A DNA stretch of 63,835 nt, filler included, from Licmophora abbreviata (Eukaryota): the NCBI GenBank assembly GCA_900291995.1. It is 31 parts of 31 records of this genome, joined end to end, with 100 filler letters (N's around TTAATTAATTAA, not from the genome) between each part and the next. Parts side by side here need not be neighbours in the genome. Positions count along the whole stretch, not along the records: positions 16,435 to 18,695 come from OLMU01006435.1; 30 more parts are not named here. One strand, 5' to 3'. Shown piece by piece: positions 3,305 to 44,588 of this stretch (its first letter is position 1; the number at the start of each line of letters is the position of its first letter). The translations under genes and the position numbers were made by a program. The notes under the pieces were generated by a model. That model saw only the letters and a program-made list of their open reading frames with translations, was not told where the DNA came from and ran no database searches.

Positions 3305-4222
3305 ATGACCACTAGTTACCTTGCTCCCCGTCCTCTCACCATGCAACGGTTGGATCAAGAGGAAGAACTGATTCTGGCTCAGTCCACGTCGCAGTGTTGC
3401 CGTTGTTGCTGCTTTCAACCCAGCATCAATTGGGTCGTCGCCCAAGGGGACAATTTCCTCCCCGGAACGGATCCATTCACGCTCGATACGGTGGGTTGGA
3501 TTCATGAAGAGAGTACGTACTGTCAGAGAACGTGCTCTTGGATCTTGCCGGGCTGTCGCGCTGTAACCTACGTGCAGCATCATGGACCGGCGCCGGCGAG
3601 TATCATGGGGGAGAATCAAAGCTGGTTTTCCTGTCAAAAGGGTCTCAGGACGGATGGATTGCTAGATCAAGATGCGAAGCAGCATGTCGTTGCGACGCAT
3701 ACAAAGAAATGTTCCTGCGGTCACTTTCTCAATTGCGGTGACTGTAAGTTTCCCATTTGTCCATTGTTCTGTGGTGCTTGTGGTCCCCTCCCCTACCTCG
3801 AGACGAAAAACACGGCAACAGACCAAGTCATTGGCAAAACACAATACATTTGCGATATCTGTTGCTTTGTTCCAAAGTACGATGTTCTGGATGCTGCTGG
3901 AAAAAAGAAATACAGCATTCGACCCGATACTTGTGTCTGCGGTTGCTGCGTTCAGTGTCGATGCGATGGGAATCGAGGAAAGTGCTGTCGCGTGCCCTTT
4001 ATTATTCGCCATGTCGAAAGCAAGGAGCCTATTCTCACGGGTGGAAATGAACAGAATGCACAAGTAGACTGTCTGTGGAGTGGGTGGAAACACGAGTGCT
4101 GTACGCAAAAGAATGCCTATCACCTGGCCTTTCCCCAGGGTGCGTCGGTGGATGAGAAGCTGCTCCTCATGGGCTCGGCGGTATTGGTCGATGTTACCAT
4201 GTTTGAACAAGAGGACAGTTAG
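3305..4222 (+). CDS. Cys-rich phospholipid scramblase-like protein
   Basis: 305 aa; EES..CQR.C motif, CCxCC clusters, and scramblase-type C-terminus YHLAFPQGASVDEKLLLMGSAVLVDVTMFE. Confidence 0.75.
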   Translation: MTTSYLAPRPLTMQRLDQEEELILAQSTSQCCRCCCFQPSINWVVAQGDNFLPGTDPFTLDTVGWIHEESTYCQRTCSWILPGCRAVTYVQHHGPAPASIMGENQSWFSCQKGLRTDGLLDQDAKQHVVATHTKKCSCGHFLNCGDCKFPICPLFCGACGPLPYLETKNTATDQVIGKTQYICDICCFVPKYDVLDAAGKKKYSIRPDTCVCGCCVQCRCDGNRGKCCRVPFIIRHVESKEPILTGGNEQNAQVDCLWSGWKHECCTQKNAYHLAFPQGASVDEKLLLMGSAVLVDVTMFEQEDS

Positions 4223-6700: not shown

Positions 6701-9028
6701 TACGGGACCAATGGCAAGGAAGTAGATATCATGCACTGGGTTGGGTCAGAATGCAAATATGGTTTGGCATTTCCCGCCGAGTACAAGCCCTCGGCCACAA
6801 CTGGTTGGAAAGAGCTTTACTATGGGATCGCAGAGGCATGTCGTGAGCAGGGATTCGCCATCATCTCCACGGGCTCAAAAGGCGAGCGTGTGATCAAATG
6901 CGCCCATGGGAAGCTTGCCCAAGCGTGCCAGGAAACCCTTCGAAGCTTTGACAACAATGATCCTGTCTATGCCAGGGGAATAAAAATGACCAGTATGGTG
7001 AATAACAGGAAACATTCACGAGGTGCTGTAGGCTCAACGCTGGTCCGTCGGACTGTGACGGTGAGACCAACCTCAGCCGGTGGGTTGTGCAAGTTTCGAA
7101 TTGTAATCCGGGAGGATTACACACGTGACGTGTTTTATCTAGCTACCTACAATGATCGCAGTGACCACAAGCACGTCAAGCAAATATGCTGTGGCTGTAA
7201 CTGTCACACTGGGCACCCAAGGCTTGAAAAGAGCGAAGTCAAAACTAGCACAAGGAAAGCTACTCCCGAGGTGAAGAAGCTGGTGCAAGACGTGTTGGCA
7301 TCGCAAGGTGGCACAGGGCTTGCTCGAAATCTTGTCTACTTCCGACATGGTGAACTACTCTCCCCTGACCAGATGATCTACTTGAAATCGATCCGAGAGG
7401 GGCCTCGCATGTCCAGAGACGGCAAAGACCGCACCAATGCAGACAAGCTCATCGAATCGCTTCGTGGCACGGAAGGGTGCTCCTTTCTTGTACTCTATGA
7501 AGATCGCAAGTATGAGTTATCTAATGAGCAATCCCTCCTGACGGAGTACAGCAGTCGCAACAACCGGAAAGTGACGGGAAGGAGTACCATCTTCTGCGAA
7601 ATGCATGTTCCGGACACGCCCACTGTTGCGACTCGGCAGATCAACATTGGTCAAGACAATCACACTGTAGTAGAAGAAATCGATGACATTCGCTCTGCTC
7701 TCTCGGTGTCAGACGGGGACCGCTTGCTGCTGGCAGTTGCATGGGTGACGGAAGCCGAGCGTCAACTGTTCGAAAAGTATCCGGAGGTGCTTTTTGTCGA
7801 CACTACTGAAGGAACCAATCGGGAGAAGCGACCCCTATTTATCGGTGCTGGAAAGGATGCAGAAAACAAGACGTTTACGGCAATTCGAATTTTTCTTCCC
7901 TCTCAGCGGCAGTGGGTGTTCCAATGGCTATTTGAGAACGCTATTCCTCAACTTCTAACGCACGATGCGATCATGCTGACGGAAGCCGTCATCATGGATG
8001 GGGATCGCAATGAACAGCAGTCATTCACAAATGCAACTCTCAAATTCTTCAAAAACGCGCAGCTCATCTCTTGCATGTGGCACCTCATCACTCAGAAGCT
8101 ACAGGAGCACAGGAAGCGGCTGCCTGATACTGCTCTGGCCAAAGCCTGCTTCGACACATTCCGCAGCTGGTGCATGTCATTTGGCACTAGTGTCGAAACG
8201 CGCGAAGAGTTCACCATTTCTAGCCGCCTGCTCAAGCACTGGCTTCGGCTGCCCGGTACTGTGTCGGCCATGGGCGAACAAAAGGTTTGCGAGCTTGAGA
8301 ACTGGCTTACAGCGAATCTCTTCCCACACGAATCCAAGTTTGCATTTTATCACCGCAAGGACTTGCGTCACTTCGAGAACAAGACCAACTCTGTCGTTGA
8401 ATCTGGGAACTCAAAGATCAAGAAGAAGAGCTGTGGGGTCAAGGCGAATGCAAATCTTGCATCGACAGCGGAGAATCTCAATCTCAATGCGGACATAGAC
8501 GGCTTGATACGGAATAAGCAAGCGTGATGCGCGACTATACAATGCAACACCACTGTGGAGCAACTCTGAAACTGCAAAAGCAGTAACTGACTTTGCGGAA
8601 TCAAACCTGTCTCGTCTGTGGAGGCGTCGAAAGAACCACGTCTGGGTGCGTGTGTCAGCAGAGAAGTGGTATGTTAGACGGGCCAACATGACAAAGCTCA
8701 AGAAGGCCCATCCAATTCCCAGGTTTGAACGTACCCGTACTGTGCAAGTTATCCAAGATGGCAATCTCAAGTATATGCGGTGTGACTGTGGCTACCGAGA
8801 GCGTAACGGGCTCCCTTGCGAGTGCGTTCTATGCATTCAGAATAGACTCGAGCCGGAAATGGTGGCTGTCCGATGGCTGAAGGTACATCAGTTCTACTTC
8901 GAGAGACCGGGCTGCGAGCAAATCACGAGAATTCTTCGAAAAATGCGAGAGCGAGAGCCTCGAGGAGTACCCTTCCAGGAAGAAACATTGCCCACAAATG
9001 ACATGTACCCAATCTTTGCTCCCACTAC
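6701..9028 (+). mobile_element. Mutator/MULE (FAR1-like) transposase with SWIM finger, frameshifted near 8520
   Basis: FVDTTEGTN, IMDGD, CMWH, VES and SWIM CDC..GLPCEC. After TGA 8525-8527 the protein continues in another frame (KRDARLYNATPLWS...). Confidence 0.85.
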
Positions 9029-16434: not shown

Positions 16435-18695
16435 GTAACGAAGAGTTGACAGCAAGTGTTTCCTCTGGACGATTTTCCTGCCTTCCTCGTCGCGAAGAAG
16501 GTATCCATGAAGAACCACTCATTGATTCTTTTGTATCGCAGCATGCGATCGTTGGTTCCATAGTTACGGGAAAGCTTGGGGTCATCAGTGCGACGATTGT
16601 TTTGCGAGGTAACTTCAAGGGTACGCCGAGCCTGGTCGACGTCAATACGCCAGATTTTCGACAGATGCTCGGCGTCGACTCCCTTGGGTTTCCTTGCATG
16701 GGTGGCACTCGCCATAATGTCATCCAAGTCAATCGTCCCGTTGATGACACCATCATTTACCCGTTCAAATAGATCATCTTCTGTGTATTCATCCATATCG
16801 GTGCTTGGAGCGGCTGTGGCATCCTCGTCTTGTAGAAACTTGCCACCCTTTGCGTCCGTCGAGCCAATAGACGCCCCGAATCTTCCGAGTTCCGCTCGTG
16901 TAGATAATCGATCGTAAAGGATCTGGTCAACTAGCAGTGGAGATACTTCTGCCAGTACTCTGTTGACCTCATCAGCAGCACCAGGGACAGGATTGGAATG
17001 CTCGTCCTGTTTCCCTTCTTCTTCGTCGACGGTCTCTAACAATGTCGTGCTAGCGGCTAAACCTTCGACGGTTGAAACGGCATAGGCGGAAGCCATCTCT
17101 GCATCTTCTTCAATCTCATTCAGAAAAATGGTCTGCCTATGTTGTTTCGCGATCATGTTCCCTTCCCAATCGGTCATGAGGTCCTCATTCTGGGCGAAAG
17201 CTTCATCGTGAGGATTGAATCGATTGGGAGTGAGCATGTATACATTATCCGATCCCTTCAACTCCTCTACCGTCGGCTTACGGGTTGGGAAGTAGGAGAA
17301 GATTCCCCAAAGCTTGAGTGGGATTCGGAAACTTGTCTCTGGAAATTCGATTGCATGATTGGTTACGGTTGCATCGTTCACCTGTATCTTCGGTACTTCA
17401 CACACTTGTATTCCCTTCTCTCTCATAATGAAGGGCGGAATTAGATTATTCTTCATCGCTGGGACGGACAACGCATTCCGTATCACCAAGATATAATCTG
17501 TTCCAGTGTATGGGCACGAGTATAACAATGCGGCATCAACAATCGGAATCTCCCTTGTCTCGTATTCCGGAGTGTATGGGGCAACTATCGCCGTTTCATT
17601 TGTGTCGGACAGAATGAATGCGTTGCTCCCAACTACCGGCATGTTGGCGTGCGAGTCAAACTCTGTCCTCGTCAAATATGCTCCTTCCGTACTCTCCTCT
17701 CCTCTGACGGGGACATCTAGTTGGACGTCAGCGTCAGCGAGGCAGATGAAGCGTGACAGGTAAGAATTAACATGCACGTGGGGACCCACACCGGGGTCCC
17801 AGGTTCGACCCGTCTGTGGCCTATCGGTCTCCTCCATCGCAGAGACCGAGGCCGACGGGCCGAGTCAAGAGTTCTGCGAGCGACGCAGAATGGACTTGAG
17901 AAAGTTCCTGCTGGTTGTGCCTGCGACATCACTGACAGTGGTCTTTGGAGGGGTAGGATTGGCAGCGGGCGCTCCTGCCATCTCTTGAATAACTTGCATG
18001 ACAAAGCCCTTTGCTTCCGTCTCCTCCTTGTCTTGTTTGGCGGCCTCTTTCAGCTTTTCATCCACTTGCTTGGCGACCGCCGCCGCGATTGCCTTGCTAG
18101 TTTCGGATTTCTGCTTCTTGCCTCCTTTAGTCTTGCTGGCCTTCGTCGCGGCTTGTCCAGCCTCTGTCTTCCTCCATTCGCGAAGCTCCTCTTTCGCTTC
18201 CTTGGATAGTTTGACGTACTCGCTGTGCGTATGGAAACGCAAGTCTACGCCTGTCTTGGGTCCCTTTCCTGAACGAAGGCTGAGAGAGCCAATGTCACAC
18301 TCTTCATTCGCTCCCCAGGTCACGCTTGCATTCGTGCCGGAGATCTGAGCCGCTTCCCTCTTACCGGGTGCCTTGATGAGCTTCTTAGCGACAGGATCAG
18401 CTGGTAGGAGGGTGGCTACCGTGTTCTCAAAGCTTTCACGGAGTCCTCCCGGTGCTTTGTCCGCTCGCACGCTCGCCATAGCTGCTTGGAGCTCTGCATC
18501 CGTGGTCTCGATGCTGTTCAGGAGGTATCCAACCCTGGTATGATCGTTCGGGAGTTGGTAGGGAACGTGGTTACTCGCTGCTTCCATCTGCACAAATGCA
18601 TTGCGATGGGCATTGCAATGCTTTTCCAAGGTAAAACTGCCGTTACCCCTCCATTTTTGATTGTGGAGCAACGCGTCTTGTTTCGTTAGCTCGGC
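16435..18695 (-). mobile_element. Ty1/copia CoDi-like element: gag C-terminus, in-frame UGA, then pol (protease to integrase start)
   Basis: gag 18695-17865 and pol 17864-16435 share one frame; EFDSHANM, GIFSYFPT, FFMDTFF. Confidence 0.9.
17781..17867 (-). promoter_or_regulatory. Candidate stop-codon readthrough element (UGA-CUC plus two stem-loops)
   Basis: TGA at 17867-17865; three-segment stem over 17863-17805; second 7-bp hairpin over 17800-17781. Confidence 0.6.
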
Positions 18696-31610: not shown

Positions 31611-31656
31611 TGATAACGATAGTAAGCCTATCAAATTAATGTTACCTTATTTATAA
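31611..31656 (+). CDS. rpl35: Plastid 50S ribosomal protein L35, C-terminal fragment
   Basis: DNDSKPIKLMLPYL* directly upstream of rpl20. Confidence 0.8.
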
Positions 31657-31675
31657 ATATTTATAAACAAATAAA

Positions 31676-32017
31676 ATGGTCAGAGTAAAACGTGGAAATG
31701 TAGCTCGAAAACGTCGTAAAAAAATATTATCACTTGCTAGTGGTTATCGGGGTGCACATTCAGTGCTTTTCCGAGTAGCTAATCAACAGGTAATGAAAGC
31801 TTTAAAACATTCATATGTTGGTAGAAAACAAAAGAAACGAATATTTAGAAAAATCTGGATAACACGAATAAATGCTGCATCAAGATTGAATGGTTTAACT
31901 TATAGTCGATTGATTCATAAATTTAAAAAATCTGATATTGATTTAAACCGAAAAATGCTATCTCAAATTGCTATTTTAGATACCGCTACATTCAAAGAAT
32001 TAATTGATGCGACTTAA
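31676..32017 (+). CDS. rpl20: Plastid 50S ribosomal protein L20
   Basis: [16 protein letters not shown]...WITRINAA...[12 protein letters not shown]-rich. Confidence 0.97.
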
Positions 32018-32019
32018 TT

Positions 32020-32056
32020 AATTGGTTAAATTTTTTTTGTAAAAGTTTAACCAATT
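32020..32056. terminator. AT-rich stem-loop after rpl20
   Basis: AATTGGTTAAA...TTTAACCAATT inverted repeat. Confidence 0.6.
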
Positions 32057-32287
32057 TTTCCATATAGAATACGGAAAAACAAAAAATTATTATTTTATTC
32101 TTACGAAGTATTTCATAAAAATTCAGATATAAAATACCAGGACGCTAAACTATATTAGGTTCTGGTACCGTATTCAAAAATTAGTTTTTTAATGAATAAT
32201 TAAAAATGAATTTTATAATAATATGTATATATCTACATTACTTATATTTCATACAAGTTAATGTAGAAAATTATTCAAAGTTTTTAT

Positions 32288-33670
32288 ATGATGAGTGAAA
32301 ACGATGATTTAGAAAAATTAATTGAAAATCTCCCTTTCTTTCTTCAAGAATATTTAAATCAACATGATTCAAAAGATCAATTAATTGAAATTGTTTTAGA
32401 TTTAGGTCGACGGCCAGAAGCTCGTTTTATTACGGGCCCCGAATATTTATCTCAAAAAATTATTTCCTGGCAAGATATTGACTATATAACAAAACGAATC
32501 AGCAAATTTAGTAATGAAAACCGTGCAGGCATTGAACGTACTCTTCATAGAATAAGTTGTATTAGAAATAGGCAATTTTTAATAAATGGTTTAACATGTC
32601 GAGTCGGACGTGCTATTTTTGGAACCATTTCAGTCGTTCGAGATTTACTTGAATCTGAAAAATCTATTTTAATTTTAGGGAAACCTGGTGTTGGCAAGAC
32701 AACCATTATTCGTGAAATTGGTCGTGTTTTAGCTGATGAAATGGAAAAGCGTGTAATTATAATTGATACTTCAAATGAAATTGCTGGTGATAGTGATATA
32801 CCTCATTCTGGTATTGGACGAGCTAGAAGAATGCAAGTATCAAAAACAGAGTTACAACATCAAATAATGATTGAAGCTGTTGAGAATCACATGCCTCAAG
32901 TTATTATTATTGACGAAATTGGTACTGAGCTTGAAGTATTAGCAGCTAGAACTATCGCGGAAAAAGGTGTTCAACTTGTAGGAACAACGCATGGTAATTG
33001 TTTGGAAAATTTGATTAAAAATCCACCGCTCGCTGATTTAATTGGTGGTATTCAATACGTGACATTAAGTGACGATGAAGCAAAACGCCGAGGCACACAA
33101 AAAAGTATTTTAGAACGAAAGGCTTACCCTGCATTTGAAATTGTAATTGAAGTCAATGAGCAAAATTCATGGACTATTCATGAAGATGTTAAAAATTCTG
33201 TTGATCTTTTCCTTCGAGAGAATTTTTCAATAGGTCAAATACGACACTTTTCATTGAATGAAAAAATTCAAATCAGATGTCAAAAATCTCAGACTAACTA
33301 TTATCATTTATCAAATGGTAGAACTAATTTGACAGATTCTTTTGTTTCATCAAATAAAAATTGGCTTATATTAAATCAAATTCTGGATGGGAATACTTTA
33401 AATTTACAAACTAAAACCTTATTCATTTATCCTTACTCCTTATCAAGTAATTTATTGAGAGAAGTTTTACTGAAAACTGGGATAAAATTTGTGTTAACCA
33501 ATGAAATTAAAAAAGCAAATCTCATTGTAGGATTAAAAAAACATCTGAAACAAAATTTTAAATTGAAAAATTTAGCGAAACAACGTAATATTCCAATCTA
33601 TAGTTTAAATCAAGTTAGTTTATACCAAGTTACAAAATTAATACGTTCTCTTAATTCTAATCGTAGTTGA
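32288..33670 (+). CDS. ycf45: Plastid Ycf45 (SpoIIIAA-like AAA ATPase)
   Basis: [10 protein letters not shown], Walker A GKPGVGKT, Walker B IIIDEIG. Confidence 0.93.
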
Positions 33671-34348
33671 TGTGAAAAAGTTTTACTCCCACTTCCTAAA
33701 ATTGTTCATTCAAAATTCATGTCTTTTTGTAGCTTATTTGTGATTATTTAATAAAATTTTCAAATTAGCATTATACATTCTTTTACTAAAATTTATTAAT
33801 TAACTACTTACGAAATNNNNNNNNNNNNNNNNNNNNNNNNNNNNNNNNNNNNNNNNNNNNTTAATTAATTAANNNNNNNNNNNNNNNNNNNNNNNNNNNN
33901 NNNNNNNNNNNNNNNNTAACGGTCGGTTGAGCTGGCTTGTCTGTCAGCCAGCATGTCACCGCCCGACCTCCCAGTCCCGAATCTCTTGTCGGTGTCTGCT
34001 CAAATCATCTCGTCCCCGCGCCAATTTCAAAACGAGAAAGACGGAGAAAAACACACAGCTTGGCTATGCTTGGGCGTTCACAGCCTCCTCCTACAAGCAG
34101 ATCGACCAGCCGGAAAGCAAAGGGGAAAAATCCGTCACATTCTTTACTACGCCACAACAAAAGCGATCTTTGTAGGATCGGGAGTGGGCGAAACGATCAA
34201 GCATAGCTAGCTAGTTTCCCGGTAGCATAGTAGTCGAACAGACGAGACGGAGAACATTGATCTGTACAAAGTATCAATCAACGTAATCAACGTAGGCTAA
34301 AAGAATTAACAAGTCTCGACTCTCCTCTGCTACCATTCTCTAAGGAAG

Positions 34349-42306: not shown

Positions 42307-42486
42307 NNNNNNNNNNNNNNNNNNNNNNNNNNNNNNNNNNNNNNNNNNNNTTAATTAATTAANNNNNNNNNNNNNNNNNNNNNNNNNNNNNNNNNNNNNN
42401 NNNNNNTAAGAGTAAGTTGACTTTTTTATCTTAAAAATGATACATTGTTTTACAGTAATTAATTACAATTTTAAAATCCATATTTT

Positions 42487-43353
42487 ATGAACACAACCGT
42501 AAATTTACAGGAAGAGTACGCTAAAACAGAAATTGCTAAAATTTTAAATTTATTAGATGAAGAGCTTGTAGGTCTAGCACCGGTTAAAGCTAGGATTCGA
42601 GAAATTGCAGCATTACTATTAATTGATAAATTAAGAAGAAGCTTAGGTATTACTGCTGGTAATCCGGGTCTACATATGTCATTTACTGGGAGTCCTGGAA
42701 CAGGTAAAACAACTGTTGGCTTAAAAATGGCAGATATTTTGTACCAATTAGGGTATATTAAAAAAGGTCACTTATTAACAGTTACCCGTGATGATTTAGT
42801 TGGGCAATATATTGGTCATACAGCACCTAAAACCAAAGAAGTTTTGAAAAAAGCAATGGGTGGTGTGTTATTTATTGATGAAGCGTACTATTTATATAAA
42901 CCTGATAATGAGCGTGATTATGGCTCAGAGGCAATTGAAATTTTGTTACAAGTAATGGAAAACCAACGAGAAGATTTAGTTGTTATTTTAGCTGGTTATA
43001 AAGAACCAATGGATAAGTTTTATCAATCGAATCCAGGTTTATCATCACGAATTGCAAACCATATAGACTTCCCAGATTATACAACTGACGAATTACTAAC
43101 GATTGCTAAAATGATGTTAGAAGAACAGCAATATCAATTGACGCCTGATGCTGAAGTTGCTTTAACTCAATATATTATAAAACGAAAAGAAAAACCATTA
43201 TTTGCAAATGCTCGAAGTGTTAAAAATGCTCTAGATCGTGCACGAATGCGTCAGGCTAACCGAATCTTTGATAGTCGTGGTCAAGTATTAACAAAAAAAG
43301 AATTAGTAAACATTGAAGCTAGTGATATTTTACAAAGTACAATCTTTGATTAA
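42487..43353 (+). CDS. cbbX: Plastid red-type Rubisco activase CbbX
   Basis: [41 protein letters not shown]. Confidence 0.97.
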
Positions 43354-43376
43354 AAAAAATTTGATATAGAATAAAT

Positions 43377-44336
43377 ATGAGTCTACTTATTATTGGTGGG
43401 ACAGGAACATTAGGTCGCCAAGTTGTTCTTCAAGCTTTGACAAAAGGCTACCAAGTTAGATGTTTAGTTCGTAACTTTCGAAAAGCTAATTTCTTAAAAG
43501 AATGGGGTGTAGAATTAGTTTACGGTGATTTAAGTCGACCCGAAACAATCCCTCCTTGTCTAACAGGAATTAGCGCTATTATTGATGCATCTACAAGTCG
43601 CCCAACGGAATTAGATTCACTAAAAAAAGTGGATTGGGATGGTAAGTTACGTTTAATTGAGGCAGCAAAAGCTGCGAATATTAAACGTTTTATCTTTTTT
43701 TCTGCTCAAAATGTAGAACAATTTGAGAATATCCCATTAATGAAGTTAAAATATGGAATTGAGAATAAATTAAAAAATTCAGAAATTCCATATACAATTT
43801 TTAGATTAACTGGATTCTATCAGGGTTTGATTGAACAATATGCTATACCGATTTTGGAAAATTTACCTATTTGGGTTACAAATGAAAATACTTCGGTCTC
43901 TTATATGGATACACAAGATATTGCAAAATTTTGTCTTCGGTCTCTTCAACTTCCACAAACAAGTAATCAAACTTTTTTCTTAAGTGGTTCAAAAGGTTGG
44001 GTGTCTTCAGAGATTATTAGTTTATGTGAACAACTTGCTGGGCAGTCAGCAAAGGTTCAAAAAGTTCCATCATTTGTTTTAAAAGTTGTGAGTCGATTTT
44101 TTGGATTTTTTGAATGGGGACAAAATATTAGTGATAGATTAGCTTTTGTTGAAATTTTAAATGTTGAAAATAATTTTACAAAATCAACGTTCGAACTTTA
44201 TAAAATGTTTAAGATTGATCCTTCAGAAATTATTCAATTAGATGACTATTTTTTAGAATATTTTATTCGTTTATTAAAACGTTTACGTGATATCAACTTT
44301 GAAGATGTCCAAAAACAGAAAAATTTAATTATCTAA
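43377..44336 (+). CDS. ycf39: Plastid Ycf39 (atypical SDR)
   Basis: GGTGTLGRQ Rossmann motif; QYAIPILE..PIW. Confidence 0.93.
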   Translation: MSLLIIGGTGTLGRQVVLQALTKGYQVRCLVRNFRKANFLKEWGVELVYGDLSRPETIPPCLTGISAIIDASTSRPTELDSLKKVDWDGKLRLIEAAKAANIKRFIFFSAQNVEQFENIPLMKLKYGIENKLKNSEIPYTIFRLTGFYQGLIEQYAIPILENLPIWVTNENTSVSYMDTQDIAKFCLRSLQLPQTSNQTFFLSGSKGWVSSEIISLCEQLAGQSAKVQKVPSFVLKVVSRFFGFFEWGQNISDRLAFVEILNVENNFTKSTFELYKMFKIDPSEIIQLDDYFLEYFIRLLKRLRDINFEDVQKQKNLII

Positions 44337-44357
44337 ACACAGAAGGATAGTATCATC

Positions 44358-44588
44358 ATGAATTACGTGGGTTGTATCGCTCGAATCTTAGAAACTCCAC
44401 GATTAGATTTTATAAATAATAACATTAGTCGAACAGAAATTAGAGCCCAATTCCCACAAGTTCGAAATGAACAATCTCTTACAATTATTAAATTAGTTTT
44501 TTGGGGTGACTTCGCTCATGATATAGTGAATTATTATCGAATTGATGATTATATTTTAATTGAAGGTTATTTATCATTTCGAAATAAT
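44358..44588 (+). CDS. ycf41: Plastid Ycf41 (SSB-like), 3' truncated
   Basis: MN...ARILETP...VFWG...DYILIEGYL, directly after ycf39. Confidence 0.8.

Follow-up and report, generated by a model that had tools for sequence, protein, structure and literature searches.

A fragment of a Ty1/copia-type long terminal repeat (LTR) retrotransposon was recognised, by its reading frames and its relatives, in a 63,835-nucleotide (nt) stretch of DNA from Licmophora abbreviata (assembly GCA_900291995.1; the whole stretch, positions 1-63835, is called the window here). The fragment makes up contig 9 of the window and comes from a diatom-like alga, with gag and pol in one frame and a single UGA between them. 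Gag-Pol is probably made by programmed readthrough of this UGA, stimulated by a conserved stem-loop on its 3' side. Across the lineage, the in-frame UGA, the common frame and a covarying RNA structure are conserved, and no start codon is conserved. An earlier note on this DNA had proposed that structured RNA suppresses the stop joining gag and pol, and the conserved UGA, the frame and the covarying stem support that proposal.

The gag-like frame of the window reads ...FLKSILRRSQNS up to the TGA at 17867-17865. After the TGA, the same frame continues with CTC GGC CCG..., which translates as LGPSASVSAMEETDRPQTGRTWDPG.... Both the end of gag at the TGA and the open frame beyond it are as first described, with 276 codons before and 476 codons after the stop, running to the contig ends on either side. 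The UGA-CUC context was also read correctly at that time, as the window has TGA followed by CTC.

Conservation of the in-frame UGA among relatives

A protein search with the stop written as X gave 266 matches, of which 120 were listed. In a scan of metagenome contigs, 265 stretches were found to encode relatives, and the best 80 loci, with amino acid identities of 40-58%, were kept. A recognisable junction was present in 69 of these best 80 loci, with TGA in 68 and CGA in one (L030). L030 is a natural variant with a single open reading frame (ORF) of the closely related L028. Among the 11 loci without a junction, nine end at a contig edge (L011, L029, L054, L062, L065, L070, L075, L078, and L079), while an internal deletion (L067) and a rearrangement (L031) account for the other two. 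Of the 68 loci with TGA, L077 carries a 4-nt insertion directly after it as well as more stops, and L015, L041, L047, and L061 have TGA at the junction and decay elsewhere. The junctions follow one pattern across loci, L(K/Q)SIL(K/R)RAKN..., one stop, and then x-x-P-A...S-S...R-R...Q-P-D/E..W-D-P-G-G, in which the first part is a C-terminal gag motif common to the window and its relatives. Both flanks were open for at least 100 codons in a common frame in 55 of the 67 loci tested, and the stop itself lies in a poorly conserved linker.

The decayed L015, L041, L067, and L077 were set aside, and the remaining 61 junctions, including that of the window, formed 49 clusters (<90% identity). TGA occurred in all 49 non-redundant junctions, TAA and TAG in none. 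The earlier note had taken a sense codon in sister copies as the mark of a private nonsense mutation; the sister copies share the stop instead. The base following the UGA was C in 32 junctions and otherwise A (10), T (5), or G (2), so that the proposed conservation of UGA-C applies to the UGA, while C at position +4 is a tendency. Altogether, 19 different codons followed the stop, with CUN in 22/49, CGG in 4/49, and CUA in 4/49, and GAA was among the commonest codons before it (7/49).

In 19 of the 49, the junction was followed by a pol ORF exceeding 1,200 codons, and these 19 ORFs terminate in TGA (10), TAG (7), and TAA (2). Because 10 of these 19 intact copies terminate pol with TGA, it is a genuine terminator in these hosts, which contradicts a reading of TGA as a host sense codon. 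The stop is also retained in young copies, namely L006, with LTRs 98-100% identical, and L026, whose LTRs are 100% identical along 300 nt or more.

Of 120 listed homologues of near length, three span the junction (P0001, P0044, and P0099). Of 120 listed longer homologues (1,335-1,779 amino acids), none spans the junction contiguously, and 46 start no more than about 40 residues past the stop. At the stop position, P0044 has G, while P0001 and P0099 have W, which may be TGG, or TGA under another code. For these three proteins, the best match among the 80 loci is only 57-67% identical. P0186 was rejected as a fused gag-pol, as its eukaryotic gene model jumps from gag residue 42 to pol and skips residues 43-333 (about 290). 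Among the sequencing runs listed for the stretch there was no RNA run. Three runs contained only 5-8% of its words, and their assembly gave one ~91%-identical contig of 1,387 nt (run X2) across the junction. The differences listed for this contig include no change at 17865-17867, which is weak evidence given 78 further differences that are unlisted.

Conservation and covariation of the stem-loop

Past the stop, the relatives read TGA-N6-CCGGC(G)..., followed by (CA)GCCGG 50-85 nt further on. The 49 junctions were aligned from -9 to +117 with MAFFT without structural information (alignment A2). RNAalifold predicted no pairs on the gappy A2, and the structure was therefore assigned manually, following the arms in the alignment. 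Helix 1 comprises columns 37-41 and 126-130, helix 2 comprises columns 42-48 and 116-122 behind a 3-nt bulge on the 3' side, and helix 3 is the apical CUCCUC/GAGGAG. In A2, 77.4% of 742 cells were paired, compared to 31-53% when the partners were slid by 1-3 columns, and the covariation score was 0.259, compared to at most 0.101 in the slid controls. Neither the paired share nor the covariation score was reached by any of 500 shuffles. Helix 1 was paired in 93% and helix 3 in 64% of cells. The pair of columns 43-121 occurred as GC in 12, AU in 11, UA in 10, and GU in 4 junctions, and the pair 44-120 as UA in 23 and CG in 12.

The window, L010, and L076 share a basal helix of CCGUC/GACGG, which is a double change from G-C to U-A compared to CCGGC/GCCGG. 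This compensated exchange alters the peptide on both sides, from P-A to P-S on one and from Q-P-D/E to Q-T-G or E-T-E on the other; these copies retain the pairing and not the peptide. A tree of 48 of the 49 junctions (L073 was left out, its ORF being too short) was built from pol residues downstream of the element in a quick IQ-TREE run with LG+G4. On this tree, the four best helix-2 pairs needed a minimum of 13, 11, 10, and 11 switches between standard pair states, so the covariation reflects many events and not one inherited change.

Minimum free energy (MFE) folds of single sequences contained all five basal pairs in 36 and at least four in 38 of the 49 junctions. In 42 of 49 junctions, the long-range stem begins 3-8 nt past the UGA, with 20 starting at +7. 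The 3-nt bulge on the 3' side recurs in the folds of relatives, and the apical parts vary between them. Folding of 20 of the 48 junctions other than that of the window, together with shuffles, gave a negative z in 20/20, ranging from -1.0 to -4.9 with a median of about -2.0.

A covariance model was built from 43 of the 49 junctions, while L020, L043, L045, L049, L063, and L080 were excluded for not fitting the common architecture. L080 has a different hairpin of 10 base pairs (bp), 8 nt past the stop. The model was searched on both strands of the window and the 80 loci (481,791 nt), where training rows match by construction. Sixty-three loci were matched in full with one site each, L011 was matched in part, and the window junction was matched as well. 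All matches were located at the junction and on the coding strand, with the sole exception of 3766-3833(-) in the window, which was dismissed as noise (E 0.92, on a contig without gag or pol similarity). Junctions outside the training set were also matched, namely L030, L047, L048, L051, L052, L015, L041, L077, L020, and L043. In the model-based alignment A4, which leans towards the covariance model, 84.2% of cells were paired, with 97% in helix 1 and 85% in helix 2, and double changes occurred at 5/5 helix-2 pairs. Conservation of the stem with compensatory changes, a check named in the earlier note, was thus found for the basal two helices and not for the apical stem.

The window copy was folded over 17870-17770(-), and z was calculated against dinucleotide shuffles (n=200). 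The MFE was -55.5 kcal/mol with z = -3.55, and 1/200 shuffles was equally stable; taken alone, this predicted fold is suggestive only. It consists of exactly the arms that had been described before, namely UCGGCCCGUC/GACGGGUCGA (10 bp, one G-U), GGCC/GGCC, and UCGGUCUCU/GGAGACCGA. Covariance model R1 matched this main hairpin with 39.3 bits and E 1.5e-8, the window row being in the training set. The hairpin begins at the second nt after the UGA (17863), so the previously described start 2 nt past the stop holds for the window copy, while the conserved stem starts about 7 nt past the stop.

The second hairpin, GGGACCC/GGGTCCC, is present in the window as described and was rejected as a feature of the lineage. 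Its mean z was -1.08 (mononucleotide shuffles), z was below -1.5 in 8 of 26 relatives, and the pairing partners differed. In one subgroup (L002, L006, and L012), the W-D-P-G codons pair locally as a CCUGG/CCAGG hairpin with z of -2.4 to -4.1, unlike the GGGACCC/GGGUCCC of the window.

Reading frames and domains of the element

With an E limit of 0.1, neither of the two window ORFs matched a Pfam family. The gag ORFs of the window, L006, and L026 likewise matched no Pfam family, and the Atlas gives only unnamed Bacillariophyta clusters for them. Because Pfam is blank on both ORFs, the gag, protease, and integrase of the window were identified via relatives. The coordinates of all features are collected in Table 1.

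Table 1. Features of the contig 9 element, in window coordinates; the feature names are those suggested by the frames, folds, and relatives.
Feature	Position	Strand	Remarks
Gag-like ORF	17868..18695	(-)	276 codons, 5'-truncated by contig end; ends ...LKSILRRSQNS; gag by position only
In-frame UGA between gag and pol (putative recoded stop)	17865..17867	(-)	Frame translation and relatives
Pol ORF in gag frame	16435..17864	(-)	476 codons, 3'-truncated by contig end
Bulged stem-loop 3' of UGA	17805..17863 (U8-A66)	(-)	10 + 4 + 9 = 23 pairs in three helices, plus one apical pair; MFE and centroid
Basal helix, 5' arm	17854..17858	(-)	CCGUC here, CCGGC in most relatives; A2 columns 37-41
Basal helix, 3' arm	17810..17814	(-)	GACGG here, GCCGG in most relatives; Q-P-D/E codons; A2 columns 126-130
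Second helix, 5' arm GGCC	17850..17853	(-)	A2 columns 42-45
Second helix, 3' arm GGCC	17818..17821	(-)	3-nt bulge (ACA) between it and the basal helix
Apical stem and loop, UCGGUCUCU/GGAGACCGA	17824..17849	(-)	Contains ATG 17837-17835
Second hairpin, GGGACCC/GGGUCCC	17781..17800	(-)	7 bp; over W-D-P-G codons
Protease-like motif D-S-H-A-N-M-P-V-V-G	17628..17657	(-)	70 codons past the stop
Integrase-core-like start (…FFMDTFFATRKAGKSSRGNTCCQLFV)	16437..16514	(-)	Cut by contig end; inferred via relative P0228

In the alignment of 40 sequences (A1), D70 and A73 of the protease-like motif were invariant, while S71 and H72 occurred in at least 90%. As an active-site motif it is unusual, with D-S-H-A-N compared to the D-T/S-G-A of retropepsins. 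An AlphaFold2 model of the post-stop protein of the window, based on the 40-row alignment, had a mean predicted local distance difference test (pLDDT) score of 65, with residues 61-230 confident. Residues 62-189 of the model align with retropepsin-like proteases. The best Foldseek match was the protease (PR) of xenotropic murine leukaemia virus-related virus (XMRV) with E 7e-3, and VIA-align gave middling Z values of 5.8 for DDI1 RVP and 5.4 for XMRV protease, with retropepsin-like proteases in 50/50 matches listed. By the offset of the structural alignment (model 62 = human immunodeficiency virus type 1 (HIV-1) PR 17, XMRV PR 24), D70 falls on the catalytic Asp. PDB sequence searches with the L006 pol and with the A1 profile returned nothing relevant.

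The relative P0228 carries Pfam rve at amino acids 404-495 (E 8.5e-6, below the curated cut-off), followed by RVT_2 at 936-1157. RVT_2 was also found in the pol of L006 (amino acids 1018-1199, E 3e-11) and in L026 (E 4e-10), and PF07727 is precomputed on 120/120 longer homologues listed. It is not seen in the window because contig 9 ends first. The window frame had been described as running into protease and integrase. This stands for the protease-like fold, while the window ORF extends about 25 residues into the integrase core and no further. The pol order of PR, integrase (IN), and reverse transcriptase (RT) therefore places the element in Ty1/copia (Pseudoviridae).

Among the relatives, L006 (7,419 nt) has LTRs at 1-698 and 6701-7395 (~700 nt), a gag ORF, the TGA, and a pol of 1,528 codons with RVT_2. 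The identical LTRs of L026 are at least 300 nt long, and those of L057 are about 660 nt long and 92-98% identical.

Comparison with known recoding systems

The type II readthrough signal consists of UGA-CGG or UGA-CUA plus an extended 3' stem-loop and is carried by alphaviruses, tobra-, pecluvi-, furo-, and pomoviruses, and coltivirus (Firth et al. 2011, PMC3159437). The candidate signal described here most resembles this alphavirus-type class. As in type II, UGA is the sole stop and is often followed by C, CUN, or CGG, a phylogenetically conserved stem has its base a few nt past the stop with a variable interior between conserved arms, and the upstream product would be fused to parts that contain the polymerase. 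Unlike type II, the carrier is an algal retrotransposon and not an RNA virus, and the signal is known here by sequence comparison. The element spans about 55-95 nt, compared to about 140 nt in type II, and has a recurrent 3-nt bulge, and no sequence or Rfam relation connects the two. The +4 rule of type II is followed by a majority rather than as a rule, with C in 32/49, CGG in 4/49, and CUA in 4/49.

In the gammaretrovirus Moloney murine leukaemia virus (MoMLV), gag and pol also share one frame with a single stop and structured RNA after a short spacer. Its solution to the Gag:Gag-Pol ratio would be equal to the one inferred here from sequence. MoMLV differs in its stop, which is UAG-G compared to UGA here (TAG 0/49), and in its compact pseudoknot compared to a predicted extended stem-loop here. 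Its pol order is PR-RT-IN, whereas that of the present lineage is PR-IN-RT.

Tca2 of Candida albicans, also a Ty1/copia element, has gag and pol separated by UGA, with a putative pseudoknot on the 3' side (Forbes et al. 2007, PMC2194720). It agrees with the present lineage in superfamily and stop codon, in having pol in frame with gag, and in a structure predicted 3' of the stop. The support for the present lineage is solely comparative, and the abstract on Tca2 reports no large comparative or covariation support (PMC2194720). The fission-yeast elements Tj1, Tosmo1-3, and Tcry1 belong to Ty3/gypsy and have a conserved GAA-TGA-CT (Jia et al. 2023, PMC10085805). They also have an in-frame TGA between gag and pol, and in the present lineage CT follows the stop in 22/49 and GAA precedes it in 7/49 junctions. 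Apart from the superfamily, they differ in their strict 8-nt context, compared to variable flanking codons plus a conserved helix here, and the passages of PMC10085805 report no structure for them.

In-frame stops between gag and pol are known from MoMLV, Tca2, Skipper, and Tj1/Tosmo/Tcry1 (PMC10085805, PMC5009743). Readthrough between gag and pol had been presented in the earlier note as a departure from the usual. It is less unusual than was implied, because some LTR retrotransposons are known to use it (PMC10085805).

The CoDi elements (copia from diatoms) are Ty1/copia with the order PR-IN-RT followed by ribonuclease H (RH), PR-IN-RT-RH (Maumus et al. 2009, PMC2806351). Their gag/pol arrangement is merely noted as 'ORF1/ORF2', and in the main text of PMC2806351 the word 'readthrough' has 0 occurrences and no RNA signal is described. 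Full-text literature searches, whose coverage excludes subscription journals, found no description of this signal, and it was absent from Rfam in a search of L006, L026, and L057 with E up to 1.

Proposed mechanism and alternative explanations

Under programmed readthrough, the majority of ribosomes would terminate at the UGA and release Gag, while in a minority a near-cognate tRNA would decode the UGA and translation would run on through protease, integrase, and RT, yielding a Gag-Pol fusion. A leaky UGA, often with C, CUN, or CGG next, would promote readthrough, and its main promoter would probably be the bulged stem-loop. The base of the stem-loop, about 6-7 nt past the stop, would be placed at the mRNA channel entrance while the UGA occupies the A site. 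We infer from the conserved features that the stop is bypassed by ribosomal readthrough, that the hairpin stimulates this bypass, and that the bypass sets the Gag:Pol ratio.

Several observations weigh against this mechanism. Copies without the stop exist, namely L030 (CGA) and the proteins P0044 (G), P0001, and P0099 (both W), and the single-ORF state is therefore tolerated at least as sequence. In L030 (2704-2779), CGA (Arg) replaces TGA while the hairpin is kept and the frames are open for 240 and 474 codons. C at +4 occurs in just 32/49 junctions. The basal helix is missing from 10/49 MFE folds, six non-redundant junctions are off the common architecture (although two of them, L020 and L043, were later matched weakly by the model), and the apical helix is merely 64-67% paired in A2 and A4. 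In the X2 contig, two changes at paired bases of the window hairpin, 17809 and 17849, are uncompensated. Finally, Tca2 is the single copia element with gag-UGA-pol and a 3' structure that has been studied, and in S. cerevisiae its junction did not by itself give readthrough, with the mechanism left open (PMC2194720).

It is unlikely that the UGA is leaky by its immediate context alone, with the stem-loop serving RNA packaging or dimerisation, pausing for Gag folding, or RNA protection. Short contexts of the UGA-CU type do suffice in fungi and animals, and the Tj1-type elements of fission yeast conserve just GAA-TGA-CT (PMC10085805). Alphavirus reporters without the structure still give about 1% readthrough (PMC3159437). 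In the present lineage, however, the helix base stands at a short, constant distance from the stop (3-8 nt in 42/49 junctions), as is usual for stimulators of recoding. The immediate context varies, and as many as 19 different codons follow the stop, which makes context alone a weak candidate.

If pol were made separately, translation would begin at an AUG past the stop, with ribosomes arriving there by reinitiation after termination, through internal ribosome entry, or on a subgenomic RNA whose promoter lies in the junction. An in-frame ATG occurs in the window 10 codons past the stop, and 17/49 relatives have one within 25 codons. A minor promoter is present in the Tca2 junction (PMC2194720), and many database proteins are annotated as beginning just past the stop, which reflects gene callers only. 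On the other side, an in-frame ATG ahead of the protease motif is lacking in 14/49 junctions, and in the rest the first one occurs anywhere from codon 5 to 77, with 59 codons past the stop in L006. Reinitiation at the loop ATG (17837), raised in the earlier note, is unlikely, as ATGs are unconserved and this one reads ATA in the ~91%-identical X2 contig (17835 C>T, plus strand). With separate initiation, pol need not share the frame of gag, yet it does in 55/67 loci tested, and TGA is not required every time, yet it occurs in 49/49. These observations leave separate initiation quite improbable.

A further idea is that the hairpin acts as a switch that ties UGA decoding to the state of the cell, either to selenium supply through SEPN1-like selenocysteine (Sec) insertion or to the nutrient stress that activates diatom copia elements. 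This is very unlikely; if it were true, the environment would tune the ratio of Gag to Gag-Pol and, through it, transposition.

There is hardly any case for the UGA as a selenocysteine codon with a hairpin like the SEPN1 redefinition element (6-nt spacer). Diatoms possess selenoproteins, and UGA is found at every non-redundant junction. The stem-loop 6-7 nt downstream resembles the SEPN1 element (PMC3159437). An Rfam search of L006, L026, and L057 (26,064 nt) with E up to 1 found no match to a selenocysteine insertion sequence (SECIS) family and nothing at the junction, although a divergent SECIS could escape the Rfam models. The copies without the stop carry Arg, Gly, or Trp and never Cys, and the position is a poorly conserved linker.

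Removal of the stop in RNA, by splicing or editing ahead of Gag-Pol translation, is equally improbable. Splicing balances Gag against Pol in some copia elements, among them Drosophila copia and elements of Arabidopsis. In the assembled read contigs, which stem from DNA-type runs only, no joint across the stop was found. Both sides of the stop are constrained as a base-paired, in-frame coding segment, while an intron needs no such constraint and would not need TGA specifically. Last, a private nonsense mutation in a dead copy with a hairpin by chance, to which only the window's own sequence, a 2.26-kb fragment without a Pfam match, would point, is refuted by the TGA shared by 68/69 related junctions, its presence in intact elements with near-identical LTRs, and a covariation that beats all controls.

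The window and the source of the element

The window consists of 31 contigs of 1,010-2,393 nt each, spaced by N44-TTAATTAATTAA-N44. Because the contigs are joined by spacers, features that stand side by side in the window are not genomic neighbours. The element is confined to contig 9 (16435-18695, 2,261 nt) on the minus strand, and neither an LTR nor RT occurs within its 2.26 kb. A second, diverged pol piece of the family was found in contig 6 (11556-12842), with 50% identity over query amino acids 334-746, and a 46-residue gag fragment from a diverged copy of the family in contig 7 (12943-13952). Both pieces stop short of the gag-pol junction. No match was found over the window with Rfam (gathering cut-off) or ARAGORN.

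A diatom, or an alga closely related to diatoms, is the probable host. In the protein search with the stop as X, one match was named from the diatom Cylindrotheca closterium, and Atlas clusters are labelled Bacillariophyta, resting on very few records. The description of the element as a diatom element is likely but depends on leads, which are the Cylindrotheca match, the Bacillariophyta clusters, and the contigs of plastid type. These low-GC contigs, 31611-33816 and 42407-44588, have a GC content of 0.28 and 0.31 and carry plastid-type genes, encoding ribosomal protein L20, an AAA/SpoIIIAA-like ATPase, a protein with AAA plus AAA_lid_6, and an NmrA-like protein. We take this gene set to resemble rpl20, ycf45, cbbX, and ycf39 of red-lineage (diatom-type) plastid genomes. 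Contig 1 (1-2393) has a GC content of 0.615, compared to 0.47-0.55 in other contigs, and may come from another organism.

Significance

What would be new is an alphavirus-type signal in a protist copia lineage, while the principle of readthrough is known. The finding is of interest for researchers of recoding and of diatom transposons and is not a new principle. Few non-viral eukaryotic recoding signals have an equal comparative backing of dozens of diverged copies, an invariant UGA, and a covarying helix. The signal type of a UGA plus an extended stem-loop would be extended to LTR retrotransposons. For annotation, the stop matters because gene callers split these elements or invent introns around it, as in P0186. 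The junction is also a candidate tool, as a compact natural readthrough cassette for diatom genetics. For the algae themselves, readthrough at this UGA would explain how Pol is expressed in an abundant copia-type lineage of diatom-like algae.

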